Positions 2 through 56,805 of a stretch of DNA of 64,000 nucleotides are shown in pieces. The position numbers and the translations under genes were made by a program. Source of the stretch: Planctomycetota bacterium. Its GTDB lineage: Bacteria > Planctomycetota > UBA8108 > SXIK01. Position 1 is the stretch's first letter. Each line of letters starts with the position of its first letter. Location of the stretch: the NCBI GenBank assembly GCA_965223845.1, contig CBDCXR010000004.1, positions 1,056,001 to 1,120,000 on the forward strand. The letters are read 5' to 3'. The notes beneath the pieces were generated by a model that ran no database searches, was not told the DNA's origin, and saw only the letters and a program-made list of their open reading frames with translations.

Positions 2-1021
2 GGTGGCGGCGAAGCCACGATGAGTTATCAGGACGGTCTCATTGGTGAAGGTCAGCCCGTCGCGCTCGTCGTGACCGAGCAAGGCCTGAGCTCCCCGTTC
101 GTGCAGGAGGATCTAACGGTTGCACTCAACGAGATTCAGTCCTGCTGCAACGCGCTCCACCGCATGGGCTTCTCGAGCTCGCCGCTCAACAATACGGTTC
201 CCGGCGAAGGACTCATCGATGACGATCCCGCGACGTGCAACGGCATCGGCTCGCACGAGATCAGCACGACCGACTCGATCTACGCATCGGTCGCGTCGAC
301 CGCTCCAGTTCCCGAAGAGGGAATCCAGGGGTTCTCGGTGAGTATCGAAGTCGTCGGTGACATCAGCATCACCGGAATCACGACCGAAGGGACGCTCGCC
401 GGTCCCGTCGAGGACGGCGGACTCTACGACAGCGGCTTCAACAAGACCCGTGTCGCAGATTCGGAAGCGAGCGGTGGTCGTTCCGGCGCCGTGAGCGCGG
501 TCGTGTTCTGCTTCGGTTGTGACTCGGTTCTCAATCCGGTCGGGACGTCGTCCTTCAGCAAGCTCACCGTCGAAGGCGAGCCCGGCGCGACGGGAGAGAT
601 CTTCTACGCCGACGGACTCGTCGGGGAAGGTCAGCCGGTCGACAACGTCATGACCGTCCTCGGTACGAGTGCTCCGGTCTGCAATTTCTTCACCACTCGC
701 CTCAATGTGAGCGTCAAGCTCGGCCCCGCCGAGCTCGGTCCGTACCTGCGTGGTGACGCGAACGACGACGGTAAGGTGAACATCGCCGACCCGATCTGGA
801 TCATCAACGAGCTCTTCCGGATGGGACCGCCGACCGAATGCATCGCTTCGGCGGATGCCAATGGAGATCTCACGCAGGATCTAGCGGACGCTGTCTACAT
901 CATCAACTATCGGTTCCTCGACGGCGAGCCTCCTCCCGCTCCGTTCCCGGGTTGCGGCACGACGATCGATCCGGAGAACGATGTGATCTCGTGCGACACA
1001 CCGCACTCGAATTGCCTCTGA
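2..1021 (+). CDS. Secreted cohesin-like x2 + C-terminal dockerin protein (5'-truncated by window edge)
   Basis: The frame is open from base 2 (GGGEATMSY..., matching GGGEATMRF inside the next gene). It has a QGFSVSI...FCFGC...GQPV module and the C-terminal dockerin RGDANDDGKVNIAD...ADANGDLTQDLAD...PFPGCG. Confidence 0.85.
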   Translation, partial: GGGEATMSYQDGLIGEGQPVALVVTEQGLSSPFVQEDLTVALNEIQSCCNALHRMGFSSSPLNNTVPGEGLIDDDPATCNGIGSHEISTTDSIYASVASTAPVPEEGIQGFSVSIEVVGDISITGITTEGTLAGPVEDGGLYDSGFNKTRVADSEASGGRSGAVSAVVFCFGCDSVLNPVGTSSFSKLTVEGEPGATGEIFYADGLVGEGQPVDNVMTVLGTSAPVCNFFTTRLNVSVKLGPAELGPYLRGDANDDGKVNIADPIWIINELFRMGPPTECIASADANGDLTQDLADAVYIINYRFLDGEPPPAPFPGCGTTIDPENDVISCDTPHSNCL

Positions 1022-1040
1022 GCCGATCGCCCTGAGGAAG

Positions 1041-1108
1041 CGTGATCTCGTTTTCGGGATCACGAGGTAAAGAGGGCCGCGGGTCTCCTTGATCCGCGGC
1101 CCTCTTTT
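1041..1108 (+). terminator. Tandem hairpins: small stem-loop followed by rho-independent terminator
   Basis: cgtgatctcg-tttt-cgggatcacg (1041-1064), then aaagagggccgcgggtc-tcctt-gatccgcggccctctttt (1069-1108), directly after the stop at 1021. Confidence 0.7.
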
Positions 1109-1170
1109 CGTGTCGACTGGTAGTCAGTACCCACACTCCGAACTCGAGGCTGGCTTCGGAGAGGAACGCC

Positions 1171-2598
1171 ATGAGATGCCGTTCGCCATCGTTTCTCGTG
1201 CTCGGCGTCGCGCTCGTCCTCCTGCCCGGTGCGGCGCTTTCCCAGGACTACACGATCGGATTCGACGGACCGGAATCGCATTCCGGCGCGGCCGGAGCGA
1301 CGGTCCGAGGAGTTTACGACTGGACTCTCGGGCACGCCGGAGAGGGAGTCGGTATCAACGGCTGGTCGCTCGGAGCCGTCGTCGACGGCGGTACGATCGT
1401 TTCCATCACCACCGCCGGAACGAAGACCGAGGCGCTCTTTGATTCCGGCCTCAATCAGACCGCCATCGCACAAGGTGACGTGGCTGGCGCGTACAGCTTC
1501 GTTGTGATCTGTCGCTGTGGTTGGGTGGAGATCCCGCCGAACGAAACCCATGCGATCGTCCGAACCGAAGTTGAATTTCGCATCCCTGAGGGTGGCGGCG
1601 AAGCCACTATGCGGTTCGCGCCCGGGCTCGCCGAAGGCGCTCGATTCGAAGAGCTCATGCTGTCTGAGGAGGGCTTGAGTGTTCCATTTGTGCGGGAGGA
1701 GCTCACCATCGCGCTCACCGAGACCGAGTCCTGTTGTGACGCGCCGTACCGTGTGGGCTTCTCGAGTTCACCTCTCAACAACATGACCCCCGGCGAGGGA
1801 CTGATCGAGGACGATCCCGATCTGTGCCACGGGGTCGGCGCGCACGAGATCAGCAGTTCCGACACGATTTACGTCTCCAACGCGTCGAACGTCCCCTCTC
1901 CTGAAGACGGAATTCAAGGGTTCTCGCTCAGCATCGAAATCGTCGGTGACCTGAACCTCACCTCAGCCACGACCGATGGAACGCTCGCCGGGCCGATCGA
2001 GGATGGGGGACTCCTGAGCAGCGGCTTCTCCAAGGCGAGCGTGTTCGATCCGGGCCACGGCGGCCGTCGTGGCGCTGTGGCCGCAGTCGTGTTCTGTTTC
2101 GGCGACTGCGACTCCGTGCTGAATCCGATCGGGACGTCCTCGATGCTCGCGCTCACGGTCGAGGGTGAGCGCGGCGGCGCGGGTGAGATCTTTTTTATGG
2201 ACGGTCTTGGGCGCGGACAGCCCGTCGAAAACATCATTACGGTGCGCGGGGTTTCCGTTCCGGCCTGCAACTTCGACACGGCTCGATTGAGCCTGTCCGT
2301 TCGGCCGGGCCCCGCCACGTTCGTACGCGGAGATGCCAATGATGATGGCAAGGTGAACATCGCTGACCCAATTTGGATCTTGAGCGACCTCTTTCGCATG
2401 GGACCCGCGACGAGCTGTCTCGCGTCCGCCGACGCAAACAACTCGCTCACGGTCGACCTTGCCGATGTCGTATTCCTCATCAACTATTCTTTTCGCCACG
2501 GCGATGCTCCAGCCGACCCGTTCCCCGGGTGCGGCACGATCGGCGATCCGGAGAGGGAGGCCGTCTCGTGCGACAGCGCCCCATCGAGTTGCGTCTGA
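1171..2598 (+). CDS. Secreted cohesin-like x2 + dockerin protein (paralogue of upstream gene)
   Basis: Signal peptide (FLVLGVALVLLPGAALS/QD), two repeated ~140-aa beta-rich modules, dockerin RGDANDDGKVNIAD/ADANNSLTVDLAD, RBS gagg upstream. Confidence 0.85.
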   Translation: MRCRSPSFLVLGVALVLLPGAALSQDYTIGFDGPESHSGAAGATVRGVYDWTLGHAGEGVGINGWSLGAVVDGGTIVSITTAGTKTEALFDSGLNQTAIAQGDVAGAYSFVVICRCGWVEIPPNETHAIVRTEVEFRIPEGGGEATMRFAPGLAEGARFEELMLSEEGLSVPFVREELTIALTETESCCDAPYRVGFSSSPLNNMTPGEGLIEDDPDLCHGVGAHEISSSDTIYVSNASNVPSPEDGIQGFSLSIEIVGDLNLTSATTDGTLAGPIEDGGLLSSGFSKASVFDPGHGGRRGAVAAVVFCFGDCDSVLNPIGTSSMLALTVEGERGGAGEIFFMDGLGRGQPVENIITVRGVSVPACNFDTARLSLSVRPGPATFVRGDANDDGKVNIADPIWILSDLFRMGPATSCLASADANNSLTVDLADVVFLINYSFRHGDAPADPFPGCGTIGDPEREAVSCDSAPSSCV

Positions 2599-2706
2599 AC
2601 GGACTTGGCCTCGAGGCCTGATTCGCGCGACTTAAGACGTAGCGTACGCGAGCGGAGTGTTAGCGGCGTGTTCGAGGCGGATTCCGCCGCGGAACCTCGA
2701 CCGATC

Positions 2707-2735
2707 TTCCCAATCGACGAGACGATCGGTACAAT
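2707..2735 (+). promoter_or_regulatory. Putative sigma70 promoter
   Basis: TTCCCA-N17-TACAAT, about 220 nt upstream of the ATG at 2956. Confidence 0.4.
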
Positions 2736-2955
2736 TCGGGGGGTTGACCTTGGGTGATGAATGTGCTCTCGCGGGGGGAAGAAGGGTCATTCCCGAGGCG
2801 AAGTAGGTCGCGGTTCGGAAGGATCAGGTCCACGGCGTCGCGTCGACGACGCGGTCGCCGACGGACGTGAGTCGGAGCGTGGCCACGTCGTGCGTTTTCC
2901 TGTCAATCGCGCAAACGAGGATCGATTTCCCATTCTCTCGGGGAGGAAAAGCAAC

Positions 2956-4437
2956 ATGAGGACGCTCTGGAGTATCTGTACTGCGATCCCGGTAGCACTC
3001 GGGCTATCGCTGGGCGCCCAGGCGCAGGATGTCTACACGCTGGGCTTCGAAGGACCGAGCTCGGTCGCCGGTCTCGTCGGCGAGGACGTCGGGTTCGACG
3101 TCACCGCCACCCTCGAGCACGCCGAAGGCGACGGTGTCGGTGCGCAGGGTTGGTCGATCGGAATCCGCGTGGATGGCGCGGAGGTCGTCGGTGTGACGAC
3201 CGAGGGCACGAGCGTCGACGGCCTCTTCGACGAGGGCTTCAACAAGAGCAAAGCCATCGACCCCATTCTGAACGACGGGAAGAACGGCGCGACGAGCGCT
3301 GTGGTGCTTTGCTACGGATGCGAGAACGTGCTTCCCCCGTCCGCCACGATCCTCCAGCTGAGTCTTTCCGCCACGATCGCCGAAGACGCGGATCCGATTT
3401 CTGTCGAGTACGAAGAGGGACTGATCGGCGAGGGACAGCCGGTTCGTCTCGTCGTCACGCAGCTCGGTCAGTCGATCGCTCCGATGCTCGAGGCGCTCTC
3501 CGTTCCCGTGCGGGCGCTGAAGAGCTGCCTGAACGACAAGTACTCCCTCGGCTTTGCGACGGAGAACCTCGTCTCGGATACCCCGTTCGCCGAAGGTTCG
3601 GTGGGCACGGGCGAGCCGTCCGGCCACGCGAGTGGTGAGGGCATGACGATCGCCGGAGCACCGGGCGAGATCGCCTCCGCACCGGTGTGGGCGACGATCA
3701 TCACGAACGAATCCGATCCGGAAGCGGCCGGTGTCCAGGGTTGGTCGCTTTCGATCGAAGCGCTGGGCGCAGCCAACATCACCGGCATCACCTGGGAGGG
3801 AACGGTGACAGCTCCGGTACCCGACGGTCTTTTCGACTCGGGATTCGAGAAAACGCTCCTCGCCGCCGCTGAAGACAATGACGGTCGGAGTGGTGCGACG
3901 AGCGCCGTCGTGCTCTGCTTTGGCTGCGACACGACCATCGGGCTCGTCGGGACGACCGCTGTCGCTGAGCTCACGGTCGAGTCGAGAGATCCGCTGTCCG
4001 CGGATGCTCCGCAGTCGGGGCGCCTCGAATACAACCCGCTCCGCAGCATCGGGCAGCAGGTCGACATCGTCCTTACGGTCCTCGGAACGAGCGTGCCGGT
4101 CTGCAATCTCGATTCCGTCGGACTCGACATCGAATTCGAGGAGGTCCAGGGTAAGGGACCGTACATCCGTGGCGACGCCAACGACGACGGCAAGCTGAAC
4201 ATCGCCGACGGGATCTGGATCATCAACGAACTGTTCAAGATGGGTCCGGAGAGCGTGTGTCAGACCGCAGCGGATGCGAACAACAGCAACACGGTCGACC
4301 TCGCGGACGCCGTCTTCATCTTCGAGTATCGTTTCCTAACCGGCCCGGCCCCCGAGGCGCCGTTTCCGGATTGTGGATTCATCCCGATCGACGCCGGCGG
4401 CGACCTGACCTGCGGAGGGAACTCGTCCTGCCTGTGA
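2956..4437 (+). CDS. Secreted cohesin-like x2 + dockerin protein
   Basis: Start moved from 2761 to ATG 2956 (GGAGG at 2942-2946, followed by the signal peptide MRTLWSICTAIPVALGLSLGAQA). Two QGWS...LCxGC modules and dockerin RGDANDDGKLNIAD/ADANNSNTVDLAD. Confidence 0.85.
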   Translation: MRTLWSICTAIPVALGLSLGAQAQDVYTLGFEGPSSVAGLVGEDVGFDVTATLEHAEGDGVGAQGWSIGIRVDGAEVVGVTTEGTSVDGLFDEGFNKSKAIDPILNDGKNGATSAVVLCYGCENVLPPSATILQLSLSATIAEDADPISVEYEEGLIGEGQPVRLVVTQLGQSIAPMLEALSVPVRALKSCLNDKYSLGFATENLVSDTPFAEGSVGTGEPSGHASGEGMTIAGAPGEIASAPVWATIITNESDPEAAGVQGWSLSIEALGAANITGITWEGTVTAPVPDGLFDSGFEKTLLAAAEDNDGRSGATSAVVLCFGCDTTIGLVGTTAVAELTVESRDPLSADAPQSGRLEYNPLRSIGQQVDIVLTVLGTSVPVCNLDSVGLDIEFEEVQGKGPYIRGDANDDGKLNIADGIWIINELFKMGPESVCQTAADANNSNTVDLADAVFIFEYRFLTGPAPEAPFPDCGFIPIDAGGDLTCGGNSSCL

Positions 4438-4839
4438 TCGCCGGTCGAATCGCAGGAGCCGCGCGTCCGTTCGGGCGCTGAACGGGAGCGAGCCACGCGG
4501 GGAACACTCTCCGCGTGGCTCGCTTCATTCTCCGACCGGGTCGAGGCCCCGGCGTTCGGAATCCTCGGGCGCCGACCACCGGTCGGGCACCCGGACAAGT
4601 GTCGGGATCGACCTGTCCGCGAACGCAAACGCCGATCTTTACGAGTCGATCCCCCGGGAGACTCGGCTACAATAGACGCTCGTCACGCGCGGTCGGCGCG
4701 TGAGTCCTCGGTTTGGGTTTTCGCCTCCCCGGAGTGGGTCTGAGATCGGATCCGACGCGTGGCGCCGTCAGAAGATGGGGGCCAGCGCCGAGATCGTATG
4801 CACTCGCCCGGAGAGTTTTCGATTGCGGGGAGTAGACGA

Positions 4840-6309
4840 ATGAAGACGCGGCGATGGATGGCGGGCGTCGTGCTCGCGACTTGGGGTCTCACCTCCGGTG
4901 CATTCGCGCAGTCCGACGCGGATGTGTTCACGCTCGGCGTTCGCGGGCCGGACGCCGTCGCGGCCAAAGCCGGCGAGCTGGCGAGTGCCGACTACGAGAT
5001 TACGCTCACGCACGACGGCCTCGGCGTGGGCGCGCAGGCCTGGTCGTTCGGTGTCATCGGCGTCGACGCCGACATCGTTTCGATCACGACCGAAGGCACG
5101 AACGCCGCGGCTCTCTTCGACGGGGGATTCCAACGGAGCGAGCTCACCGACGGCGAAGGGAATCGCGGTGCGATTAGCGCGATGACTTTGTGTCAGGGTT
5201 GCCCCGCGACGCTGCCTCCGAACGAGACGTCTTCGATCGCCGTCATCGGCCTCTCCGTGCCGGTCGGCCTAGAGGATAGCGTGGCGGGGATCGAGTTCGC
5301 GGAGGGACTCGTCGGTGCGGGACAGCCCGTCCAAATCGTCGTCACGCAGGAGGGATTTACCATCGAGCCCGATCTCGCGGCGAAGGGAATCGAAGTGCTC
5401 GCGCTCCCCGATTGTTGTGCGCCGGGACTGAACTACGCGTTTTCCGGGCAGCGCGTCCAGAGCCCGGATCCGCTCCTCCCGACCGATTCCGACCCCGCCT
5501 GCCTCGGAAATACTACCGTTCTCGTCAACGAGGTCAGTCCCGGCGAGATCGGCCGCGGCAAGGTCTTCGTCAACGTGTCGTCGAATGTCGAAGGGGACGG
5601 CGTCCAAGGATGGTCGGTCGGCGTCGCCGTCGACGGCTTCCGCGTCGTCGAGGACAGCGTCTCGCTCGACGATACGGCGGGCGCGCCGATGCCGGACGGT
5701 CTCTACGACAATGGCTTCAACAAGACTCAGCGCATCGATCCGGGTGAGAACGAGGGCCAGGAGGGAGCGGTGAGCGCGGTCGTCCTCTGCTTCGGCTGCC
5801 CGACGACTCTGCCGCTCGTCGGCACCGAGTCGATCCTTCAGTTCGAGGTCGAGACGCTGGTGCCCGTGCCCGAGGAGGGCGCGATCGACGGGGTGTGTCG
5901 GGTGGAGGCGGACCTCCTCGGGAACGGGCAGCCCGTCCGGAACGTCCTCACGATCCTCGGTGCGAGCATCCCCGCTTGCAATACGCGGTTCGTCAGCGCC
6001 TCCATTCGGTTCGCTCCCGTCGAGAATCGTCCGTTTCGCCGCGGTGACGCCAACGACGACGGAAAGAACAACATCGCGGATCCGATCTGGATCTTGAACG
6101 AGCTGTTTCGTGACGGTCCGCGGTCGCCGTGCGATCGTGCCGCCGACGCGAACAGCGACGGGACGGTCGACCTCGCCGACGTGAGCTTCGAGGTCACGTA
6201 TCTGTTCGAGCGCGGCGAAGCGCCGGGCGATCCCGGACCGTTTGCGTGCGGGCCGAGTCCGACGACCGATGATGGCCTCAGTTGCGCGGACTTCACTTCG
6301 TGTGAATAG
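4840..6309 (+). CDS. Secreted cohesin-like x2 + dockerin protein
   Basis: Start moved to ATG 4840 (GGGGAG upstream; signal peptide MKTRRWMAGVVLATWGLTSGAFA). Two modules with LCQGC/LCFGC and dockerin RGDANDDGKNNIAD/ADANSDGTVDLAD. Confidence 0.85.
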   Translation: MKTRRWMAGVVLATWGLTSGAFAQSDADVFTLGVRGPDAVAAKAGELASADYEITLTHDGLGVGAQAWSFGVIGVDADIVSITTEGTNAAALFDGGFQRSELTDGEGNRGAISAMTLCQGCPATLPPNETSSIAVIGLSVPVGLEDSVAGIEFAEGLVGAGQPVQIVVTQEGFTIEPDLAAKGIEVLALPDCCAPGLNYAFSGQRVQSPDPLLPTDSDPACLGNTTVLVNEVSPGEIGRGKVFVNVSSNVEGDGVQGWSVGVAVDGFRVVEDSVSLDDTAGAPMPDGLYDNGFNKTQRIDPGENEGQEGAVSAVVLCFGCPTTLPLVGTESILQFEVETLVPVPEEGAIDGVCRVEADLLGNGQPVRNVLTILGASIPACNTRFVSASIRFAPVENRPFRRGDANDDGKNNIADPIWILNELFRDGPRSPCDRAADANSDGTVDLADVSFEVTYLFERGEAPGDPGPFACGPSPTTDDGLSCADFTSCE

Positions 6310-6549
6310 CGCGAAGCAACGGTGACGGACTGGTTCGCAGCGACCGAGCACGCGGCGGCGCGACGCATTCGTCCGCGGGCTCGGGTCGTGTTCGGTGCGC
6401 TTCGTCATCCGCGCCACGCCGATTCGCGACGTTGGCGTCGAACGAGCAACCGGGCTCCCCACCTTCTCACGTACAGTCGCGTGTTCTGTACTCGTTCGGC
6501 GCTTGAAGCCGACTTCACCCGCGCATAACTTTTCGCCTCGCTGCTAGCA

Positions 6550-6579
6550 TTGACACGCCGTTTCGAACGCCCCTATAAT
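6550..6579 (+). promoter_or_regulatory. Consensus sigma70 promoter
   Basis: Exact TTGACA (6550-6555)-N18-TATAAT (6574-6579) in an intergenic region of a high-GC genome. Confidence 0.8.
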
Positions 6580-6889
6580 CGACCTCCGAGTGTCTGAGAA
6601 GTGGACTTCCTTCCTTGTCTTGACACCGTTCCGTGTAGGGGTCGGTCTCGCCGGGTCTCACGGCGTTTTTCGAGGGTTTGGCTTGTTCCGCCACACGATT
6701 GGGCGCCTGACCTTCGCCGCCGGTATTGCGGCTGACCGAAACGGAGGCAACCGTCTCCGTCCCACCATTTTCGACTTGATTTCGATCCACTAGAACAACC
6801 GCATTCCCCGCCTCCGCTTGTGCATGTCGGGACCCCGCTTGGGCAAGTCGGGGGGGATTGCTTAGCTTCGGGCTGTGAAGGAGATCACG

Positions 6890-8344
6890 ATGCAAGTGAA
6901 GCTGTCCCGGGTTGGGAGTTGGAGTTTTCTCCCCGCCATCGTTCTGACTCTCTCGGCCGGCGTCGCTTTCGCCCAAGACCCTGCGAATTTCGATCTCGAG
7001 ATCCGCGTGGACAAGGAAGCCTACGCTCCCGGTGAGACGCTCGTCGCGACTCCGGGTGTCGTCGCGCGTGAGGCGGGTATCCAGGGCTGGTCGTACGGCG
7101 TGCGCCACGACCCGAACGTGCTCAGCCTCGACAGTGTCGGCATCGAGAACTCCGACACGGCTGGACTCTTCGACGAAGGTTTCAATCAGACCGAGATCAT
7201 CGTCGAGGGCGGCACCAACGTGGGATTCATTCAGGCGATCGCGCTCTCGCTCGACGGCGACGCCATCGTCGTTCCGGCGAACCCCGACGGCCTCTTCACC
7301 TTCGCCGCGGCGAGCTACACCGTCGCCGCGGACGCGTGTGAAGGAGCGGTCGGAGACATCATGACCGCGATCGAGTTCACCGAGGAGATCGGTGTTCCGG
7401 ACAGTCCCCCCGTCGAGACGAACCTCACCCTCGGCGGCCGCGGCCTCGTGCCGGCGTCGGTTGCCGGTGCGACGGCGACGATCACCTGTGAAGCCCTTCC
7501 CGCGGGACTCAGCATGCACTTTGCGGCTGGCGCGCAGGATCTTGTCGCCGACGAGACGGCGACGATCGACGTGACGGTCCACGGTTCGGCTTCCGGCGCG
7601 GCGTCCGAGGTCCAGGGTTGGTCCTACGGGATCCGGCTCGACACGACGGCGATCGTCGCGACTGCTGCGACTCCCGGCGCCGACGCCGCTGCCCTCAACG
7701 GGGGCAACGGTCCGGACTTCGTCAGCTACGAGCTCAACGATCAGAGCCTCGACGGGAACACGAAGGGTGTGACCGTCGGTGTCGCCGTTACGCTCAATGC
7801 TCCGGCGGCGGAAGTCCTCACGATCGCCGACGGCGAGACGAAGCACCTCGACACGATCACGATCCGCAGCGCCAAGTCGCTCGGCGAAGGTGAAAGCGAG
7901 ACGACCGAGATGGCGTTCGACAACACCCTCGGTGAGACGGCAGATCCCGTTCGCGATCCGATCGAGGCCATCTTCGTGATCGGCGGACGCAGCGTCGAGC
8001 CGACGCTCGGCGGCGCGAAGACGATCAACCTCATCGGCACCGGTGGTCCCGGTGGCGTCCGGTTCATCCGCTCCGACTCGAACAGTGACGGCCGCGTCGA
8101 CATCGCCGACGGCATCTGGACGCTGATGACTCTCTTTGGGGGCGAGCAGCTCTCGTGCGAGATCGCGGCGGACTCGAACGCCGACGACAGCGTCAACATG
8201 ACCGACGCGATGCACACGTTCCAGTGGCGCCTCCAGCCGGGTGCGACGCCGGGGAACCTCTTCCCCGCGCCGACGGCTCCGTTCCCCGCTTGCGGCACGG
8301 TGCAAGATCCGGTGCTCACCTGCGCGAATCACTTCTGCCAGTGA
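6890..8344 (+). CDS. Secreted cohesin x2 + dockerin protein
   Basis: ATG 6890 with AAGGAG RBS and a signal peptide ending AFA. Cohesin-type motifs GIQGWSYGVRHDPNVLSL and VQGWSYGIRLDTT; dockerin RSDSNSDGRVDIAD/ADSNADDSVNMTD...PFPACG. Confidence 0.85.
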   Translation: MQVKLSRVGSWSFLPAIVLTLSAGVAFAQDPANFDLEIRVDKEAYAPGETLVATPGVVAREAGIQGWSYGVRHDPNVLSLDSVGIENSDTAGLFDEGFNQTEIIVEGGTNVGFIQAIALSLDGDAIVVPANPDGLFTFAAASYTVAADACEGAVGDIMTAIEFTEEIGVPDSPPVETNLTLGGRGLVPASVAGATATITCEALPAGLSMHFAAGAQDLVADETATIDVTVHGSASGAASEVQGWSYGIRLDTTAIVATAATPGADAAALNGGNGPDFVSYELNDQSLDGNTKGVTVGVAVTLNAPAAEVLTIADGETKHLDTITIRSAKSLGEGESETTEMAFDNTLGETADPVRDPIEAIFVIGGRSVEPTLGGAKTINLIGTGGPGGVRFIRSDSNSDGRVDIADGIWTLMTLFGGEQLSCEIAADSNADDSVNMTDAMHTFQWRLQPGATPGNLFPAPTAPFPACGTVQDPVLTCANHFCQ

Positions 8345-8358
8345 GTTGATGTAGAGAA

Positions 8359-8432
8359 GGCGATCCGAAGCGGATCGCCGACGCGAAACAAAACGGCCCG
8401 ATCGAGCGCGTCTCGATCGGGCCGTTTTGTTT
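8359..8432. terminator. Tandem hairpins including a strong bidirectional terminator
   Basis: ggcgatccg-aag-cggatcgcc (8359-8379), then a perfect 21-bp stem aaacaaaacggcccgatcgag-cgcgt-ctcgatcgggccgttttgttt (8386-8432). Confidence 0.85.
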
Positions 8433-8829
8433 TCGCTTCGTGCCGAGCCGGCGACGAAACGTTCCAGGCGAAACGCCCGGCACCGGCCCCGAGCGCGCCC
8501 GCGACCGAGCACCGAAGGCGCGGAGACTCGCGTCCGACCCGACTTCTCCGCCACGCGGTAGTCGTCTCGGCTCCGCTCAGCCGGGCGGAACGGGCCCGAT
8601 CGAGCGCATCTTTCGTGCCTGTAAGGTTCTACGATCGGGCGATGTTGACTTGCTCGCGGGGCACCTCTAACATCGATCCATCCCCCGTTTGCCCTCCTTC
8701 CCCGACGCTACGAACAGCCTGGTGTTGCTCCCCCCTCTCTGCGTGGAGAAGCCCTCTCCGCGCGGGGATGTCCTCCTTTTTCGGAGGGCTCGGGGAGCGC
8801 GCTCCCGCTCTGGAGGCTGGACTGCTCTC

Positions 8830-11800
8830 ATGCCACTCTCTCATCCCTCCTCTCGCTCGAGTTTCGTGCTTTGCCTGGCTGCGGTGCTCGCCCTCACCGC
8901 GTGCAACGATGGCACGAAGGTTCGCTCCACCGTTCCCTCATCGAACGAATCCGGCGTCAGCGCTCGTGCGCTGATCGCCATTCGCCTTTCGAACACGGTG
9001 AGCTCCGCCGACGACGGCAACATCTCAGACCCGAGCCTGTTCCAGGTGCGCGGCGACTTCACGGACGGGCTCTATCCGGGAACGGTCGCTCTCGCGGACT
9101 GGGACCGCGACGTCCGCCCGGGGATGACCGTCGACGAGTTCTCGCAGGGACTCGCGGACGGGGGCGGGGACGGCGAGGTCGAGCGTGAGCTCGACGCGCT
9201 CGTCTTCCTCCTCAGTCAAGGCGTGAGCTTCAAGCCGGGCGAGACGATCACCGTGATCATCGACCACGATATCACCGCTCACGGCGTTCCCCTCGAGCGA
9301 GGGAAGACGTTCTCGTTCCGCGTCGGCGACTCGGCGACGTCCGAAGGTGCGCTCCGCATCGTCACGACCGACCCGGCTGCGGGCGCGCAGGACGCCCCGC
9401 TCGCCCCCCGGATCCGCGCCAGGTTCAATCGGGGAGTCGCGGGCGCAGGGCTCGCTGAAGCGATCAGCATTCGCGGCGAGCGCTCGTTCTTTCACAGCGG
9501 AATCGACACGCTCTTCACTCAGGAAGTGGGCGCCGGAGTCCTCGAGGTCGTTCAGCGCCTCGCGGCCGGAGACGCGTTCGTTCCGGGCGAGACCGTCGAG
9601 GTCGCGTTCAGCTCGGACATACAAGACGCGCCGGGAGGCGGCGCGCTGCCGATCGCGCTCGCCGCGCACGTCCTCGAGTTCCAGGTGAGCGGAGGGCGAG
9701 TTGCCGGCGGTTGGGACGCGGAGGCGCTACCCTTCGTCGATGGGTCGCCGCGAACGGTCCTCGTCGCGGAGTTCGACGCCGAATTCGACGGTCTCGAGTT
9801 CATGGCCGTGACCTCGCGCACCCTCGAGTACTACGCTCAGACGGCGCCGGGACAGTGGAGTCAGATCGCGGCGACGAGCCTCGCTTCGGACGCCGGGCGT
9901 ACGGTCGTGGGCGGGGCGCTCCTCGATGTCGAGCGCGACGGCCGACCGGAGGTCGTGGTCGTTCGGAGCGGTGACTCCGACAGCTCGATCACCGTCTACG
10001 AATTCGACGAGGCCGGCGATCTCGTCGAGCACGCCGACCTCGCCGAGGAGACGTTCCCCGCCGCCGGTGTCCACGCTGTCGCGGCGATCGATCTCGATGC
10101 CCAGGGTGACCCCGAGATCCTCGCGTTCCACCCCGGAAATCGCGCGATCGGGCACTTGACGGTTTTCGCGCTGACGGAAGTGCCGCCGGACCCGGCGACG
10201 ATCGATCCGCTCGTCCCGGAGACTCTCCAGCCGCGGCCGGGTTGGGAGCGGACCGACAACCCCGTGCCGTCCTTCGACGAAGCCACTCGCGTCTCGGCGG
10301 TGGATCTCGGCGCGGGCGGACTCCTCGATCTCGTCGTCGAGACGGTCGGCGGAGATCTCGTCCTCTTTCAGAACGCTAGCAGCCCCGGTGCACCCTTTGC
10401 GCTTCGTCGAGCCGGCGTCCTCCGCGGACGCTTCGGCGGCTCGGTGGACGCGGCGGCGTGGGCCGACGCCGACTACGACGGCGACGGCGACGCCGATCTA
10501 ATCGTGTGGGACGCGGACGGCGCACTTCTCTTCGAGAACCAGACGGTTCGCGGTGAAGATGGCGCGGTGACCGGCGGTCTCCTCGAGGAACTCGCGCCTC
10601 CGATCGAGCTGCCGGAGCTCTCGGTTGGCATCGGCGCGCCGACGGCCGCCTTCGCGCGCGATCTCGACGGCGACGGCGGACTCGACGTTCTTCTTCGGCA
10701 CGAAGGGGGCGACGCGACGCTCGCACTCCTCACGCCCGAAGGAGTCGAGACCGCGGCGCTGATCGGACCGGTCGGCGGACGCGGACCCGTCGCGATCGCC
10801 GACGTGAACGGTGACTCGGGTCTCGACATCCTCCTCTTTCCCGAGGGCGACTCCGCCCCCGTCCTCCAGTCGGCGCGCGACGTGACGCCTCCCGCCGCTG
10901 TCACGCCGAGCGCGTTTCGCATCGCGCCCGGAGAGAGCGGCATCGTCGACTCGGAGCTCCGGGTGTCGATCCGCGGTGATCTGAGCGAGATCTTCAGCGG
11001 CTACTCGATCGCGCTCGACTACGACAATCGCTTCCTCGACCTCGAGCGATTCGAGCCTCCCGATGATCTCGCCGCGATCGCGACATTCGTGACCTGTCCG
11101 GACGCCAACGGAGTCGGCTGCGCCGGCAACGCGGCTGTGACGATGAGTTACTCCGAGAGTGTTCGCGGCGCCGCGTCCCAGGACGTATTTCTCGGTCGCT
11201 TCGTCTTCTCGATCGCTCCGCTCACCGAAGCCGCGACGACCGAGATCGAGCTCGAGTCGTTTCAGAGTGGAGGGGCGACATTCGAGAACACCCTGGCGAT
11301 CGTCGACGGCGAGGCGACGCTTTCGCTTCCCGTCGACGTGAGCGGCGGGATCTTCTCTGTCGAACTCCAGCCGCCGGCGCCGCCGGACCTCGTCGCGCAG
11401 TGCTTCGTCGACGAGAGGCGCCCCGACGAGACGGTCGTCTCGGTCGAGTGGGTGTCGCCGAGTGAAAAGGAGTTTTCCGGGTTCGAAGTGTTCGTCAGTG
11501 GATCGCGCGTCGCGACGCTCGGTGCGGCCGCGACGGGAGCGACCTTCACCACTCCGCTTACCGGCGAGCTCGCGATCGAGGTCCAAGGGCGGAGCGGCGA
11601 CGAGCTCGCCACCGCGTCTTGCCAGATCGTCGCCGTGCACGAGCCGCTCGTCGAATGCGAGGCGATCTCGGCGGCCGAGAACCGCGTGACGTGGTCGCTT
11701 GGGCATCTCGCCGATCGATTCAACGTCTATCGCAATGGAAATCGCATCGCTCGACTCGGCGGGGATGCGCAGGAGTTTACCGACCGGTCGCCGAGCCAGG

Positions 11801-14664
11801 ACGCCGCCGATCTCTACGAGGTTTCGGCGGAGCTGTCCGGAATCGAAGGCTCGCGCGGTGAGTGCGCCGGCGGTCCAGTGGGCGACCCCAACGTTCAGAC
11901 GACCGAGCCCCCGACGATCACGCAGGCGTCGCTCGTGACTCGAACGTCCGCGCGCCAAGCGAACGTTCTCCGGCTCCGGTGGACGAACGGCGAAGGATAC
12001 TCGTCGATCGCGCTCGCGCTCGCACGCGTCGTCGACGGGGCCGAGCAGATCGTCCTCGAGACGGATCTCGCGGGAACGGCGACGGAGTTCCTCTACGACG
12101 GCGGCGACCCGCTCGCCGGCGGAGTCCCACCCGGTGAGTATCGCTTTACGCTCGTCGGGGTGACCGACGGAATCGAGAGCGATGCGGTTCAGTCCGGTAT
12201 CGTGCCGGTGACGATTCCCGCGCTTTCGGTCGGGTTCGACTGCGCGATCGCCGGAAACGGTGACATCCAGCTCGGATGGGACGCCGTCTGGCCCGGCTAC
12301 GACGACGTCACCCTCCGCATCGAACACCGGATCAACGGTGTGCTCCAGGGCGCTGCGGAGACGGTGTCGGTCGGAACATCGGTGACGGAGTACACGATCT
12401 CTGAGCCGATCGCACTCGGGGTCTACTCGTTTCGGCTGCGAGCCGTGGAAGACACGATCGGACTTCCGCCGTCGGTGATTCCAGCGCCGGAAGCCCTGCA
12501 ACAGAATTGCGAGCTCTCCTTCTCCGCCGGCCTCTCCGTCGGCACGGTGCACGGAGGCATCGGTCTCAGCCAGATCGAGATTCCGATTCGCGCGCAGGTG
12601 TTCGGCGCGATCTCGGCGTTCCACTTCGAGCTCGAGTATCCGGACATCATCGACATCGATTCCGCGACGGGTCTGCTCGTCGACGCCCTCGGAGCGAACG
12701 CGACGCTCGTGATCTCGGCCGGATCATCCCCCGGGACGAATCGCGCGAGCGTTGATGTAACGGGGGTCCGCATCGTGCCCGATGCGGACGGAGATGGGAC
12801 GCTCGACGGCGAGGTGATCGTCGCGCGGCTCGTCGGCGCGGCTCCGTCGGACTTCGCGCTCGCGGGAACCTATCCGCTCACCTTCGTCGGAGCTCCGACG
12901 TTCCGGTTCGGGGTCGCGGATACCCCGGTCGCCGCGGTCGACGGCGAGCTCGAGCTCGTCCAGCGCTACGTGGTCGCCGAGAGCGTCGATCTCCCCCCGG
13001 ATTCCGACGAGCCGTTTACGGTGAGGGTATTCGGGACGTTCGTTGAGACCGTGCCCGACTACAAGCTGAACAGCTTCGCTATCCACATCCGTTTCGATCA
13101 CGAGCTGCTCGAGCTGCTTCCGGTCACGCAATCCGACCAGGCGGGCTCGGCGGTCGAAGGACTCGGGACGACGATCCTCCCGAACGCACAGGTGATCGAG
13201 GCTGCCAACAACCCGGCGTCGGGAACCACGGGGCAGGCGACGATCGCGTGGCTCGGGTTCAACCTGAGGGATCCGAACGTCGGGCTCGAGTTTCTCCACC
13301 CCGGAACGATGCTCAACCTCGTGACGTTCAAGTTCCGGCCGCGCGCCGGAGCGGCCGCGGCCGGCAGCACCGACATCACGTTCGTCACGCAGGCGCCGGG
13401 CGTCAGCAATCCGACCGCTTTCTTCCCTGCCGTCGACGTTCTCGGTGAGCCGGATCTCGAAGCGTTCTTTCCGGGCTCCGTGCGATTCGGTGAATCCGAG
13501 GCCCAGCCGGAGCTCTTCCGCATGGAACCGTCGGTCGGCTCGCTCCTCGGCGGGCAAGAGGCCGCACTCGTGGGAGCCGGGTTCCGCTCCGTCGCGCCGG
13601 AGGACATCGGCGTTCGCCTGCGCCGCACGGACGGCCCGGGTGCACCCGCCGACCTCGACGTGTCGGCGAACGAAATCCTCGAGATTCGCTCGGATCGAAT
13701 CCGGTTCATCGTCCCCGACTCGGGACTCCGGCCGCAGATCGCTCCGCCGTCCGTCTACTCGGCCGACGTGATCCTCGAGATCGCGGGCGCCGAGCTCATC
13801 GTTCCCGACGGCTTCGAGTACGAGTTTCCCCGGCTCGACGGTGGGGATCGAACGGCGGGGTCGTCGGACGGTGGTGATCTCCTCGTCCTGACCGGTGCGG
13901 GCTTCGCACCGGAGACCGAGGTCGGATTCCGTTTCGCCGACGCGACCGTCGACGCCACGGTCGACCGCGTCGACAGCGACGGTCGTCGTGTCCACGTCAT
14001 CACTCCCGCGCTCTCCGGCCGCGAGGGGCAGATCGCGACGATCGAGGTTCGGACTCCCGGGATCGTCGATCTTCAGCTGCAGAACTTCTTTACCGTGCTC
14101 GACCCCGACGCCGGGCCGACGCTCCGGCTCGTCTCGGTGACACCTGGAGTCGGCTCGATCTGTGGTGGGGAAACGGTGACGCTGACCGGTGAGGCGTTCG
14201 CGCCCGGTCTCGCGGTTTCCTTCGGAGGCGTCGCCGCCGAGAGCGTCACCGTCGAGAGCGCGACGAGCGCGACCGTGGTTGTTCCCGCCGTGCTCGAGGG
14301 AACGGGGACGGTCACCGTCACGGCTACGCTCGGGGCGAGCAGCGTGAATCTCGCCGACGCGTTCACATTCATGCATCCCGCGCCGCCCTTCATTCGCGGG
14401 GACGTCAACGAGGACGAATCGGTGTCCGTCGCGGACGTCGTCGTTCTCAGCGACCTCGTCGTTGGCGCCGCGGAGATGTTCCCGGCGAACTTCGACGCGG
14501 CCGACGTGAACGACGATGGGATCGTCGACGGTGGTGACGTGACCGCGCTCATGGACTTCCTCTTCGGAGCGGGGACGGCGCTCCCGCAGCCGCATCCCGA
14601 ACCGGGCCTCGATCCGACCCCCGACGCGCTCAAGTCCTGCACTGAAGTCTCGGACGGAGGTTGA
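8830..14664 (+). CDS. Large lipoprotein scaffold: Ig-like x2, FG-GAP/VCBS propeller, cohesin-like x3, FN3-like repeats, IPT/TIG x3, dockerin
   Basis: Start moved to ATG 8830, giving lipobox LALTA-C. About seven DxDxDGxxD-type repeats, cohesin-like GYSIALDYDNRFL / AFHFELEYP / SFAIHIRFDHELL, three IPT motifs (e.g. GSICGGETVTLTGEAF), and dockerin RGDVNEDESVSVAD/ADVNDDGIVDGGD. Confidence 0.8.
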   Translation: MPLSHPSSRSSFVLCLAAVLALTACNDGTKVRSTVPSSNESGVSARALIAIRLSNTVSSADDGNISDPSLFQVRGDFTDGLYPGTVALADWDRDVRPGMTVDEFSQGLADGGGDGEVERELDALVFLLSQGVSFKPGETITVIIDHDITAHGVPLERGKTFSFRVGDSATSEGALRIVTTDPAAGAQDAPLAPRIRARFNRGVAGAGLAEAISIRGERSFFHSGIDTLFTQEVGAGVLEVVQRLAAGDAFVPGETVEVAFSSDIQDAPGGGALPIALAAHVLEFQVSGGRVAGGWDAEALPFVDGSPRTVLVAEFDAEFDGLEFMAVTSRTLEYYAQTAPGQWSQIAATSLASDAGRTVVGGALLDVERDGRPEVVVVRSGDSDSSITVYEFDEAGDLVEHADLAEETFPAAGVHAVAAIDLDAQGDPEILAFHPGNRAIGHLTVFALTEVPPDPATIDPLVPETLQPRPGWERTDNPVPSFDEATRVSAVDLGAGGLLDLVVETVGGDLVLFQNASSPGAPFALRRAGVLRGRFGGSVDAAAWADADYDGDGDADLIVWDADGALLFENQTVRGEDGAVTGGLLEELAPPIELPELSVGIGAPTAAFARDLDGDGGLDVLLRHEGGDATLALLTPEGVETAALIGPVGGRGPVAIADVNGDSGLDILLFPEGDSAPVLQSARDVTPPAAVTPSAFRIAPGESGIVDSELRVSIRGDLSEIFSGYSIALDYDNRFLDLERFEPPDDLAAIATFVTCPDANGVGCAGNAAVTMSYSESVRGAASQDVFLGRFVFSIAPLTEAATTEIELESFQSGGATFENTLAIVDGEATLSLPVDVSGGIFSVELQPPAPPDLVAQCFVDERRPDETVVSVEWVSPSEKEFSGFEVFVSGSRVATLGAAATGATFTTPLTGELAIEVQGRSGDELATASCQIVAVHEPLVECEAISAAENRVTWSLGHLADRFNVYRNGNRIARLGGDAQEFTDRSPSQDAADLYEVSAELSGIEGSRGECAGGPVGDPNVQTTEPPTITQASLVTRTSARQANVLRLRWTNGEGYSSIALALARVVDGAEQIVLETDLAGTATEFLYDGGDPLAGGVPPGEYRFTLVGVTDGIESDAVQSGIVPVTIPALSVGFDCAIAGNGDIQLGWDAVWPGYDDVTLRIEHRINGVLQGAAETVSVGTSVTEYTISEPIALGVYSFRLRAVEDTIGLPPSVIPAPEALQQNCELSFSAGLSVGTVHGGIGLSQIEIPIRAQVFGAISAFHFELEYPDIIDIDSATGLLVDALGANATLVISAGSSPGTNRASVDVTGVRIVPDADGDGTLDGEVIVARLVGAAPSDFALAGTYPLTFVGAPTFRFGVADTPVAAVDGELELVQRYVVAESVDLPPDSDEPFTVRVFGTFVETVPDYKLNSFAIHIRFDHELLELLPVTQSDQAGSAVEGLGTTILPNAQVIEAANNPASGTTGQATIAWLGFNLRDPNVGLEFLHPGTMLNLVTFKFRPRAGAAAAGSTDITFVTQAPGVSNPTAFFPAVDVLGEPDLEAFFPGSVRFGESEAQPELFRMEPSVGSLLGGQEAALVGAGFRSVAPEDIGVRLRRTDGPGAPADLDVSANEILEIRSDRIRFIVPDSGLRPQIAPPSVYSADVILEIAGAELIVPDGFEYEFPRLDGGDRTAGSSDGGDLLVLTGAGFAPETEVGFRFADATVDATVDRVDSDGRRVHVITPALSGREGQIATIEVRTPGIVDLQLQNFFTVLDPDAGPTLRLVSVTPGVGSICGGETVTLTGEAFAPGLAVSFGGVAAESVTVESATSATVVVPAVLEGTGTVTVTATLGASSVNLADAFTFMHPAPPFIRGDVNEDESVSVADVVVLSDLVVGAAEMFPANFDAADVNDDGIVDGGDVTALMDFLFGAGTALPQPHPEPGLDPTPDALKSCTEVSDGG

Positions 14665-25169: not shown

Positions 25170-25267
25170 TCTCCGCGTCTGCCTCGACGCAACGGGCGGC
25201 CTCGGGTCGCTCGAACGGGTGACCCTGGAATGTGGAGGGGGCTCCTCACTTCTCAGGGGAAACTCGA

Positions 25268-27493
25268 ATGGCAGAATTGACGCGGGAAGGCGTGCTCCAG
25301 GCCGTCTCCCAGGGGAAAACTCTGCGCGGATTCAATCTGCGTGGGCTCGATTTGGGTCACACGCGACTCGCGAACGCCAATCTAGAGAGTGTCGATCTTT
25401 CGGGAGCGAATCTTCAGGGTACGGATCTCTCCGGCGCGAATCTCTGCGGCGCGAACTTGAAGGGAGTGGACGCAGTCGGCGCAAACTTCGCCGGCGCGAG
25501 CGTCGATCTCGCGAACTTCGATCACGCCGAGCTGCGGCAGTGCGACCTTCGCCGCGTGAGTTTCGATTCGGCTCAGATCGTCGCCTGCGACTTTACCGAA
25601 GCGAACCTCTTCCGAGCGAAGTTCGTCGAGAACGACCTCAACGGCTCTGTTTTCGCGTCCTCGAATCTCGGCGGTGCCTCGTTCTCGAACTGCAACTGTG
25701 CCGGCGTGTTTTTCGCCGGCGCTCAGATGGTGAATACCGCCTTTCGCTACGTCGACTTGAGCGAGGCGGACTTTTCGCAGGCCCTACTTCGCCACACGAA
25801 GTTTCATTCGACCTCGATTCGCGGCGTTCGTTTCCACGGCGCAAAGTTCGTCGACTTCGACTTCAGTCGTATCGACCTCGAAGGCGTGGACTTCGCCGGC
25901 GCTGATCTCAGCGGAGCGACCTTTCTCGAAGGCTCCGTGCGCGGCGCGAGCTTCGAAGGAGCCAATCTCTCCCGGGTGAACCTCGAAGGCATGGACCTCC
26001 GCAAGATGAACTTTCGCGGGGTCGTTCTCTGCCGAGCCAATCTCGCGGGCGCCAATCTCGCGGAAGCGAACCTCGACCAGACTCGTCTCTCGCAGACGAA
26101 CTTCGCCGCCGCCGATCTTACCGGCGCAACGTTCCGTCAGGCGACTGGCAGCGGCGCGACGCTGCGCGGGGCGACGATCCGAGAAGCCGACTTCTCGCAG
26201 GCCGAGCTCGCTCACACCAGCTTTTTCGAAGCCACCGTCGAGGGGGCGAAATTCGACGAGTGCCGCATGGAGAACGCGAACTTCAACTCGGCGACGCTCT
26301 CCGATGTCGCCTTCTCACGCAGCGTCCTTCCGTGCTCCACGTACCTAGACACGCGGTTCGAGAACGCCAACTTTCCGAGCGCGATTCTCGAACGCGGCAC
26401 CTTCCGCGCGACGGTGTTCCAGCACTGCGCATTCGTCGGGACGGAGTTCCGACGTTCGCTGATGGAGGGGATTCGGTTCGAGAACCTCAATCACGAGCGC
26501 GCCGACTTCTACCGCGCGAATCTCACCGACGTCGTGTTTCGGTCCGGTCGACTCGAGGCGGCGAACTTCGACGCCGTCGACTGCCGAGACTGTCGCTTCG
26601 AGTCGGTGCAGATGAACGACGCGCACCTCGTCGCGAGCCGATTCACGAACGTTCGCTTCGACGACGTCTCTTTCCACGGCTCGCTCATCAAGGACAGCGG
26701 CTTTCGCGACTGTCGCCTGAAGTCCTGTGACTTCGGCGGAGTCGACCCGCAGGATCTGGAGTCTTGCGAGGGACTCGACAAGAACAGCTTCGTCGACTGT
26801 TCATTTACGGAGGAAACCGAGAGCGCGCGGGACATCGAAGAGAATACGACGATCCACATCCCGATCACGCCGAAAGATCTCGAGAGCCTCGAGTCGCTCT
26901 CGGCGCCCACCGCGCTGGATCCGTCCGAACAGTGCGCACAAACGCTCGTTCTCGATGGCGGGCCGTCGACCGAGCTCGAGATTCGATTCGAGTATCTGTT
27001 CCTCACCGCGGACGAGCTCGCCCGTTTCCTGCTCGGTGTCGAGCGACTCTACAACCGCGTGCTCCAGGAGATGCGAGACCTCGAGAGCAGCGACGTGCTT
27101 CCGGCGGAAGACCGCCTTCACGTGAAGCGCGTCTCCATCGAAGACGACGCGAGCTTCGTCTTTCGCGGAGTCGCCGGACCGCCGGGATCGGACTCGGTCC
27201 TCGAAGTCATCCGCGCGCTCTGGGAGACCGGTGGGGGGGCCGAGATCGAATCTTGCTTCAAGTCTCTCCACGCGGCGAGTGATGGCGACCCGCTGAATGC
27301 TCGCACCGAAGGAGCGGACGCTTCGCCTTCGGGCGAGCGCGTCGAGGAGCTTCGAGGGGAGCTCGAGAAACGCTGCGCCGAGCTTCTTCCGACCGCCACC
27401 ACAGACGGGGTTGAGGGAGTGGTCGACCTCTGTCTCCAGTTGCCGCGCGAGATCTTTCATCGCCGGCATCTCTGGAATCTCACTACGGCGTAA
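25268..27493 (+). CDS. Long pentapeptide-repeat protein with unknown C-terminal domain
   Basis: A(D/N)(L/F)xx repeats over roughly the first 500 residues, then a non-repeat ~230-aa tail; ATG 25268 preferred over GTG 25232. Confidence 0.9.
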   Translation: MAELTREGVLQAVSQGKTLRGFNLRGLDLGHTRLANANLESVDLSGANLQGTDLSGANLCGANLKGVDAVGANFAGASVDLANFDHAELRQCDLRRVSFDSAQIVACDFTEANLFRAKFVENDLNGSVFASSNLGGASFSNCNCAGVFFAGAQMVNTAFRYVDLSEADFSQALLRHTKFHSTSIRGVRFHGAKFVDFDFSRIDLEGVDFAGADLSGATFLEGSVRGASFEGANLSRVNLEGMDLRKMNFRGVVLCRANLAGANLAEANLDQTRLSQTNFAAADLTGATFRQATGSGATLRGATIREADFSQAELAHTSFFEATVEGAKFDECRMENANFNSATLSDVAFSRSVLPCSTYLDTRFENANFPSAILERGTFRATVFQHCAFVGTEFRRSLMEGIRFENLNHERADFYRANLTDVVFRSGRLEAANFDAVDCRDCRFESVQMNDAHLVASRFTNVRFDDVSFHGSLIKDSGFRDCRLKSCDFGGVDPQDLESCEGLDKNSFVDCSFTEETESARDIEENTTIHIPITPKDLESLESLSAPTALDPSEQCAQTLVLDGGPSTELEIRFEYLFLTADELARFLLGVERLYNRVLQEMRDLESSDVLPAEDRLHVKRVSIEDDASFVFRGVAGPPGSDSVLEVIRALWETGGGAEIESCFKSLHAASDGDPLNARTEGADASPSGERVEELRGELEKRCAELLPTATTDGVEGVVDLCLQLPREIFHRRHLWNLTTA

Positions 27494-27556
27494 GGAAGCG
27501 CAGTCGCGCGCAGGCCGAGTTGCAATCGGCGCGAAAGAGGGATGAGAGAGGGAAGG

Positions 27557-28486: not shown

Positions 28487-28605
28487 CCGCGCAAAGCCTG
28501 CGCGAAAACGGGGGGCGGAAATCGAGTTTCTCAAGCTTCATCCCATTCGACTCTGATATTTCCCGTGACGTCCGGAGCGGGGTGACGGACGCCGGAAAGG
28601 AACTT

Positions 28606-46801: not shown

Positions 46802-46897
46802 GGGAAGCCCAACGTCGACGACTCACGACCTACGGCGTCTCGCCGCTATGCTCACCGAATCGGCTGAGAATGCGGATTAGAGAGAGGAGACCCCGCG

Positions 46898-47869: not shown

Positions 47870-47921
47870 ACGAACTAGCGACGCGCACACGGGCGACGAA
47901 CCGGAGGAGAGCCCCGCGGCG

Positions 47922-52831: not shown

Positions 52832-52849
52832 TTCGATCTCGCGCCGGAA

Positions 52850-56804: not shown

Positions 56805-56805
56805 A

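Follow-up and report, generated by a model that had tools for sequence, protein, structure and literature searches.

Positions 2-14664 of a 64,000-nucleotide stretch of the genome of an uncultured Planctomycetota bacterium (hereafter the window; contig CBDCXR010000004.1, positions 1,056,001 to 1,120,000) contain six open reading frames (ORFs), all on the + strand and all encoding products with a C-terminal dockerin (Table 1). Five of the six products share a build that we call Coh-Coh-Doc, namely a signal peptide followed by two homologous cohesin-fold modules and a dockerin, and the sixth, P0006, is a giant predicted lipoprotein. This layout agrees with an earlier reading of the sequence alone. 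The six co-oriented, dockerin-terminated proteins that it described correspond to the six + strand ORFs, with duplicated loops in all six and profile matches to solved dockerins, and its description of five of them as two cohesin-like modules plus a dockerin is borne out by AlphaFold2 (AF2) modelling with structural alignment and by a hidden Markov model (HMM) of the modules. Pfam and NCBIfam searches revealed no catalytic domain in the six window proteins, as had also been stated. Signal peptides and the lipobox of P0006 were read by eye; in the five Coh-Coh-Doc proteins the N-terminal hydrophobic signal ends in A-x-A/Q.

Table 1. Features of the cohesin-dockerin genes in the window.
Feature	Window position (nt)	Strand	Residues	Description and evidence
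P0001/P0007, Coh-Coh-Doc paralog	2..1021, 5′ cut	+	339 of 479 codons	3′ part; dockerin ~752-910; translation, Pfam Dockerin_1 26.3 bits, HMM module and dockerin matches on full ORF
P0002, Coh-Coh-Doc	1171..2598	+	475 aa	Signal peptide aa 1-24
P0002 cohesin A	1243-1725	+	aa 25-185	
P0002 cohesin B	1813-2310	+	aa 215-380	
P0002 dockerin and Cys-rich tail	2317-2595	+	aa 383-475	
P0003, Coh-Coh-Doc paralog	2761..4437	+		Translation, alignment (39% identity to P0002), HMM domains; likely start Met66 (nt 2956)
P0004, Coh-Coh-Doc paralog	4759..6309	+		Translation, alignment (37% identity to P0002), HMM domains; likely start Met28 (nt 4840)
P0005, most divergent Coh-Coh-Doc paralog	6875..8344	+		Translation, alignment (25% identity to P0002); HMM matches: modules E 6.7e-35 and 1.8e-41, dockerin E 3.5e-30; likely start Met6 (nt 6890)
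P0006, candidate anchoring scaffoldin	8689..14664	+	1,991-aa ORF	Big_5, FG-GAP repeats, three cohesin-like modules, four Fn3, TIG, C-terminal dockerin; likely start Met48 (nt 8830)
P0006 cohesin-like module 1	10996..11313	+	aa ~770-875	Profile support: hhalign against genome-wide cohesin profile 92.4%, E 5.3e-7, 104 columns
P0006 Fn3-like domains (four)	11377..12522	+	aa ~897-1278	AF2 model
P0006 cohesin module 2	12520..12966	+	aa 1278-1426	Structurally confirmed; close to type I cohesins
P0006 cohesin-like module 3	13072..13407	+	aa ~1462-1573	Profile support: hhalign 85.8%, E 5.4e-6, 94 columns
P0006 dockerin	14398..14559	+	aa 1904-1957	Dockerin_1 25.4 bits; PDB dockerins E 0.0013 (P0006 alone)

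The sequence-only reading was accurate for the six window genes and fell short on the extent of the locus. The array begins about 9.3 kb upstream of the window, where four further genes bring it to 10 co-oriented genes, and the complete P0001/P0007 ORF itself starts upstream of the window, at genome position C4:1055552. The two upstream genes nearest the window encode further Coh-Coh-Doc paralogs, of 521 and 487 aa, for a total of seven in tandem, and the cluster is headed by paralogous proteins of 684 and 659 aa that each carry three cohesins and a dockerin (L001 3690-5744 and 6125-8104; genome C4:1046690-1051104). The cluster encodes at least 21 cohesins; our home-made HMM counts 20 of the 79 detected in the genome, and P0006 is additional. 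It is flanked by the rpoA/secY/map ribosomal region on one side and by yidC-mnmE-smc on the other. Its intergenic gaps measure 150-570 bp and contain promoter-like sites, and the paralogs may be transcribed separately. A perfect sigma-70 consensus, TTGACA-18-TATAAT, occupies window positions 6550-6579, about 300 nt upstream of P0005, and weaker promoter-like sites precede P0003 (2707-2735) and P0006 (8645-8673). A search of sequencing runs returned four matching runs from one study, none of them recorded as RNA, and Tandem Repeats Finder detected no repeats in the window. The 684- and 659-aa head proteins also display a Cys-flanked acidic motif (CDNG.DDDG.GL.D..DP.C), a divergent dockerin and a long Pro-rich tail, and their build recurs in a third gene at C4:2394433-2396409.

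Each of the six translations contains two tandem F-hand Ca2+-binding loops of the DxNxDGxxxxxD type with a helix-forming stretch after each loop, and the AF2 model of P0002 places the dockerin helices at residues 398-408 and 430-441. Scores against Pfam Dockerin_1 (PF00404; cut-off of 22.9 bits) exceed the cut-off for P0001 (26.3 bits) and P0006 (25.4 bits) and remain below it for the other four proteins (19.4, 20.1, 16.7 and 10.1 bits). A profile of the Coh-Coh-Doc family matches solved dockerins at E 6.2e-5. Judged from their sequences, the C-terminal repeats are real dockerins. The dockerins of the eight family members in the genome constitute one subtype, distinct from the bulk: the nearest neighbour of seven of the eight is another family member, and mean identity is 55% within the family versus 40% to all others. 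Conservation across these eight paralogs is highest in the dockerin (51%), ahead of cohesin A (39%) and cohesin B (36%).

The modules that precede the dockerin adopt the cohesin fold, a nine-stranded flattened beta-sandwich (jelly-roll) superimposable on solved cohesins. The AF2 model of P0002, computed from a 13-row alignment, has a mean predicted local distance difference test (pLDDT) score of 77.8, with values of 80-93 in the modules. A Foldseek comparison with cohesin structures, which the sequence-only reading had proposed as a check, supports the fold: the top PDB match is 3l8q, the type II cohesin dyad of Acetivibrio cellulolyticus ScaA (E 1.2e-10). The list obtained for the whole of P0002 is mixed and also ranks generic tandem beta-sandwiches high, such as integrin legs and AgI/II C-domains; per-domain structural alignment settled the assignment. 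Identity to solved cohesins is only 4-14%, and Pfam Cohesin (PF00963; gathering cut-off of 24.1 bits) has no match at E ≤ 1 on any of the six window proteins. Cohesin B is a duplicate of cohesin A (hhalign 99.9%, E 2.7e-35). An HMM seeded from the modules and iterated over the ORFs of this genome converges at 79-81 domains in 53 ORFs and recovers 14 of the 16 weak PF00963 matches of a whole-genome Pfam search; in ORF C4:2441709-2443610, both models match the same residues. Because the iterated HMM recovers these weak matches, it adds an indirect sequence link to the fold that connects the Pfam-invisible modules to cohesins. On the strength of the models, the Coh-Coh-Doc modules are real cohesin folds and putative dockerin binders. 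A complex prediction that paired P0002 cohesins A-B (aa 25-380) with its own dockerin and tail (aa 383-475) and two Ca scored 0.15 against a mark of 0.32, in a run made without controls; this score counts neither for nor against binding. A CxxC motif (VVLCFGC) is conserved within most cohesin modules of the Coh-Coh-Doc paralogs (window 1171-8344), with a CC pair in the inter-module linker, and is replaced by non-Cys residues in several metagenomic homologs.

P0006 combines cohesin-like modules with domains recognized by Pfam (FG-GAP_3, E 3.9e-11; TIG, E 4.9e-11; Big_5, E 1.2e-6; Dockerin_1, E 1.7e-5). Its N terminus carries a candidate lipobox, LALTAC (consensus [LVI][ASTVI][GAS]C), with Cys72 after a hydrophobic stretch, found by eye and with a simple regular expression. 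A canonical lipobox is present in four of the five proteins compared, P0006 and three of its four orthologs, the sequence of ortholog P0028 (GTSC) being non-canonical. Within the genome, only three of 54 cohesin ORFs (P0006 added to the 53) have a lipobox-like N terminus, P0006 among them. The sequence-only reading had called this protein a lipoprotein with three cohesin-like modules; the lipobox stands as read by eye and module 2 is confirmed structurally, and modules 1 and 3, for which AF2 confidence is low, are assigned by profile alone. The model of residues 735-1620 (five-row alignment) has a mean pLDDT of 69.3. An Fn3 control scores 0.1% by hhalign against the genome-wide cohesin profile. 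The same profile misses the structurally confirmed module 2 (2.2%), and none of the three modules matches the 13-row family modules (hhalign probabilities below 1%). P0006 carries at least one true cohesin and probably three. Its cohesin 2 is of a type found in a single copy in the genome, and its dockerin is a subtype of its own, with no Cys between the repeats, conserved in four orthologs. At the C terminus of P0006 (14398-14664) and of its orthologs, the tail contains only one Cys, unlike the approximately 300 other dockerins of the genome.

A word-index search with 22 matches had suggested that the Coh-Coh-Doc family is rare, a view overturned by an exhaustive HMMER search over 1.84 billion representatives, which gave 1,554 matches at E ≤ 1e-30, some multi-dockerin or partial matches included. 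Most of the 150 matches listed are 450-600 aa long with one stretch across nearly the whole profile, and some are longer with 3-7 stretches. The closest Atlas clusters are unnamed Planctomycetota proteins, and the named records with relatives are almost all metagenome-assembled genomes of uncultured Planctomycetota. The family occurs, often in tandem, in all 21 genomes of the order, which represent three families, and the arrangement of Coh-Coh-Doc genes with the giant gene directly downstream is kept across these three families. In the five genomes checked, an ortholog of the giant P0006 always lies directly downstream of the family genes, which form tandem arrays in four; layouts in relatives include 3Coh-2Coh-4Coh-2Coh-giant, 5 x 2Coh-giant and 2Coh-1Coh-2Coh-2Coh-giant. 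Single-sequence searches with P0006 cohesin 2 found it in only nine of the 21 relatives, and this query placed the giant ortholog and family matches on one contig in eight genomes, this one included (G000, G001, G002, G003, G007, G009, G012 and G014). It had no match in the 10 genomes of genus g5, although both g5 genomes checked do encode the full-length ortholog. Word-index searching returned only four full-length P0006 orthologs.

The genome-wide dockerin census that the sequence-only reading had suggested as a way to find cargo uncovered about 300 dockerin ORFs, some 290 of them outside the family and cluster. The 7.9-Mb genome holds at least 145 matches to PF00404, counted among the 150 candidates scored out of 421. 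Our HMM of the family dockerin and tail matched 302 ORFs; in 265 of these, no more than 40 residues separate the dockerin from the stop codon, and 234 dockerins run into a conserved tail (PPAPFPxCG..DPT.D.L.C). A dockerin is also present on 52 of the 53 cohesin ORFs. The one exception, C4:3659749-3661626, ends in two hydrophobic segments and is another candidate anchor, as is a 1,143-aa ORF with a lipobox-like N terminus, two cohesins and a dockerin at C4:1163675-1167103, 44 kb past the end of the window. Pfam families were assessed at E ≤ 1e-6 in 60 dockerin ORFs drawn at random from the 292 outside the locus. CotH was found in 13 and LTD in 14, and proteins of 1,300-2,200 aa that combine LTD with a CotH-kinase-like domain are the commonest recognizable dockerin-tagged class (13 of 60). 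Other recurrent families were Laminin_G (six), FG-GAP (four), PKD-type (four), Beta_helix (three) and F5/8 type C (two), with Peptidase_S8, Lysyl_oxidase, FGE-sulfatase, His_Phos_1, VWA and PSCyt1 seen once each. Seven of the 60 are themselves cohesin ORFs according to the module HMM, 23 lack any non-dockerin Pfam family, and none of the 60 has a glycoside hydrolase (GH) catalytic family at this threshold, the remaining 232 lying outside the sample.

The best explanation of these observations takes the locus as the downstream two thirds of a scaffoldin cluster of 10 genes, which is conserved and belongs to a non-cellulosomal cohesin-dockerin system of an uncultured Planctomycetota lineage. We give a probability of about 0.6 to a cluster that encodes a lipoprotein anchor and divalent adaptors for cargo encoded elsewhere. 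P0006 would act as the membrane-tethered anchoring scaffoldin and the Coh-Coh-Doc proteins as secreted divalent adaptors. Each adaptor would use its family-specific dockerin, together with Ca2+, to attach to a cohesin on the anchor or on a different scaffoldin, and would present two diverged cohesins to the approximately 290 dockerin-tagged proteins encoded elsewhere. This cargo would include LTD-CotH proteins, FG-GAP propellers, lectin-like, PKD and beta-helix proteins and a few hydrolases, and the diversification of cohesins among paralogs would sort cargo classes onto the envelope. We infer the three tiers from the architecture class of the proteins, the separate and more conserved dockerin subtype of the family and the unique type of P0006 cohesin 2. 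Several points weigh against such a hierarchy. The pairing of cohesins and dockerins is deduced here from sequence and fold, specificity is not readable from sequence, and a cohesin fold alone is no proof of dockerin binding. The greater conservation of the dockerins may merely reflect constraints on the Ca2+ loops. The presumed anchor has a dockerin of its own, which is atypical for described cellulosome anchoring scaffoldins. The ORF counts derive from stop-to-stop frames and home-made HMMs rather than from curated gene calls. The lipobox and signal peptides were identified by eye, and the compartment could be either the outer surface or the enlarged planctomycete periplasm. Finally, the presence of a dockerin on nearly every cohesin ORF fits a self-assembling mesh as well as it fits a hierarchy.

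In such a mesh, which was the main idea of the sequence-only reading, the cohesins of the cluster would bind the dockerins of the same cluster, and the polymerisation of A2B/A3B monomers would give a branched envelope lattice that depends on Ca2+, is anchored through the lipoprotein and is largely independent of cargo. A network is conceivable because every component, anchor included, has both plug and socket: all proteins of the 10-gene cluster, P0006 among them, carry cohesins and a dockerin, as do 52 of the 53 cohesin ORFs genome-wide. That the cluster encodes no enzyme and is conserved as a unit is also consistent with this idea, for which self-association of Ruminococcus bromii Amy4 provides a precedent (PMC4611034). 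However, the roughly 290 other dockerin ORFs need sockets, and the cluster holds about one quarter of the detected cohesins (20 of 79, plus P0006). The cohesins of described cellulosomal adaptors take the dockerins of other proteins (PMC11557425, excerpts), and the divergence of the paralog cohesins to 36-39% identity, whereas the dockerins form one subtype, is unexpected if all of them bind that dockerin. Because so many other dockerin ORFs need sockets, because the eight family dockerins share one subtype distinct from the bulk and because the Coh-Coh-Doc build fits the class of polyvalent adaptor scaffoldins (PMC11557425, excerpts), we favor the anchor with its adaptors, in line with the alternative that the sequence-only reading had itself offered (adaptor scaffoldins that display cargo encoded elsewhere), and consider the mesh less likely, indeed improbable. 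Just as doubtful is a closed kit in which the lipoprotein and the Coh-Coh-Doc paralogs would cross-plug into a Ca2+-dependent, lipid-rooted envelope lattice, a new kind of surface layer held by cohesin-dockerin links only, that the approximately 290 dockerin-tagged proteins would decorate. Slightly less probable still is that the dockerin serves as a general export, retention or Ca2+/glycan-binding tag and that the cohesin-fold modules are beta-sandwich spacers or ligand-binding domains, in a surface adhesin-like family devoid of any organising pairing. Points in its favor are the abundance of tagged ORFs, most having the dockerin at the C terminus and 234 the conserved Cys/Pro tail, which is reminiscent of a sorting tag; the lack of any Pfam Cohesin score for the modules and their great distance from solved cohesins; and the wealth of adhesin-type domains in P0006 (FG-GAP, Fn3, TIG and Big_5). 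On the contrary, the co-occurrence of cohesin and dockerin on 52 of 53 cohesin ORFs and their co-amplification in one conserved cluster are hard to explain without a functional link, and non-cellulosomal archaeal pairs are stated to be verified binders in PMC9012536 (excerpts), which cites earlier work.

Elsewhere in the window, positions 25232-30030 encode a 753-aa pentapeptide-repeat protein followed by two adjacent sigma-54 activator ORFs (27542-28486 and 28204-30030) whose frames overlap by about 280 nt. Two long ORFs, 31845-33824 (659 aa) and 34293-39110 (1,605 aa), have no Pfam family at E ≤ 1e-5. Positions 45725-62684 contain an operon of the order MoxR (AAA_3), DUF58, BatA/VWA, VWA, PQQ-like propeller and prenyltransferase-like, of which the last product (59055-62684) is a 1,209-aa exported, very acidic, Ala/Glu/Ser/Arg-rich low-complexity protein without a Pfam family. 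The gene for this protein accounts for the strong AT skew (0.38) at 60-62 kb.

Almost all that is understood of cohesin-dockerin assembly comes from the cellulosomes of Bacillota, and the genome analysed here points to a system of comparable size, with about 300 dockerin ORFs and about 80 cohesins, in a diderm, non-cellulolytic lineage. Since the standard Pfam model does not see the sockets of this system, ordinary annotation reports orphan dockerins alone. The cluster provides a concrete, conserved core of the system, made of a candidate lipid anchor and a diversified family of adaptors, and reduces the question of what planctomycete dockerins plug into to a small, testable binding matrix. 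The Coh-Coh-Doc family, whose compact members measure about 500 aa and which spans many hundreds of metagenome sequence clusters, may also offer new orthogonal cohesin-dockerin pairs for the engineering of protein assemblies. Were the mesh true, it would represent a new principle for building a cell-surface layer.

Scaffoldin gene clusters, designated sca, exist in cellulosome producers. As in cellulosomal clusters with anchoring scaffoldins, a cell-tethered cohesin protein would be encoded here beside adaptor or primary scaffoldin genes. Cellulosome anchoring scaffoldins are attached through SLH domains, sortase or transmembrane segments (PMC11557425, excerpts), whereas the tether predicted here is an N-terminal lipid, absent from the anchors listed in the same excerpts, and P0006 adds an FG-GAP propeller, Fn3 and TIG domains and its own dockerin. 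Polyvalent adaptor scaffoldins, as described in these excerpts, carry a dockerin and several cohesins on one non-enzymatic protein. The build is the same in P0001-P0005, with two cohesins and a dockerin, and in two upstream genes, with three and a dockerin; the fold of the tandem cohesin dyad is shared as well. They differ in that the host belongs to the Planctomycetota and not to the Bacillota, that the cohesins are invisible to PF00963, that the dockerin has a Cys-rich tail, that the gene has been amplified into 3-7 tandem paralogs and that a cellulolytic context is lacking, with no GH family in the 60 sampled dockerin ORFs. Because this sample contains no GH cargo, we do not regard the system as a cellulosome.

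Our literature search, thin on subscription journals, found no description of the Coh-Coh-Doc family or of the conserved cluster. In the amylosome of R. bromii, Amy4 bears a cohesin and a dockerin on one protein and is said to be able to self-aggregate (PMC4611034), but it is an amylase with a single cohesin, unlike the enzyme-free, divalent proteins described here. Closer in build are the enzyme-free scaffoldin-like proteins of non-cellulolytic ANME archaea, with one dockerin and up to five cohesins (PMC9012536, excerpts); these are archaeal, and the excerpts make no mention of a conserved tandem array accompanied by a lipoprotein. The planctosome proposed for freshwater Nemodlikiaceae (Andrei et al. 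2019, PMC6461901, excerpts), which the sequence-only reading had correctly brought up, is modelled with an LTD-tethered anchor of 2,210 aa bearing P-domains and one cohesin, one adaptor (dockerin-HYR-cohesin) and M12B/M14 peptidase cargo. None of these hallmarks (LTD, P-domain, HYR or a peptidase family) was detected by Pfam in the six window proteins. The adaptors here would be tandem Coh-Coh-Doc paralogs, LTD is located on the cargo (LTD-CotH in 13 of 60), and a peptidase occurs in only one of the 60 sampled ORFs. The cluster is therefore not a member of the planctosome as these excerpts describe it, with no LTD anchor, P-domain or HYR adaptor and with cargo that is not dominated by peptidases. 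What the two appear to have in common is a non-cellulosomal cohesin-dockerin assembly in Planctomycetes, arranged in tiers of anchor, adaptor and cargo.

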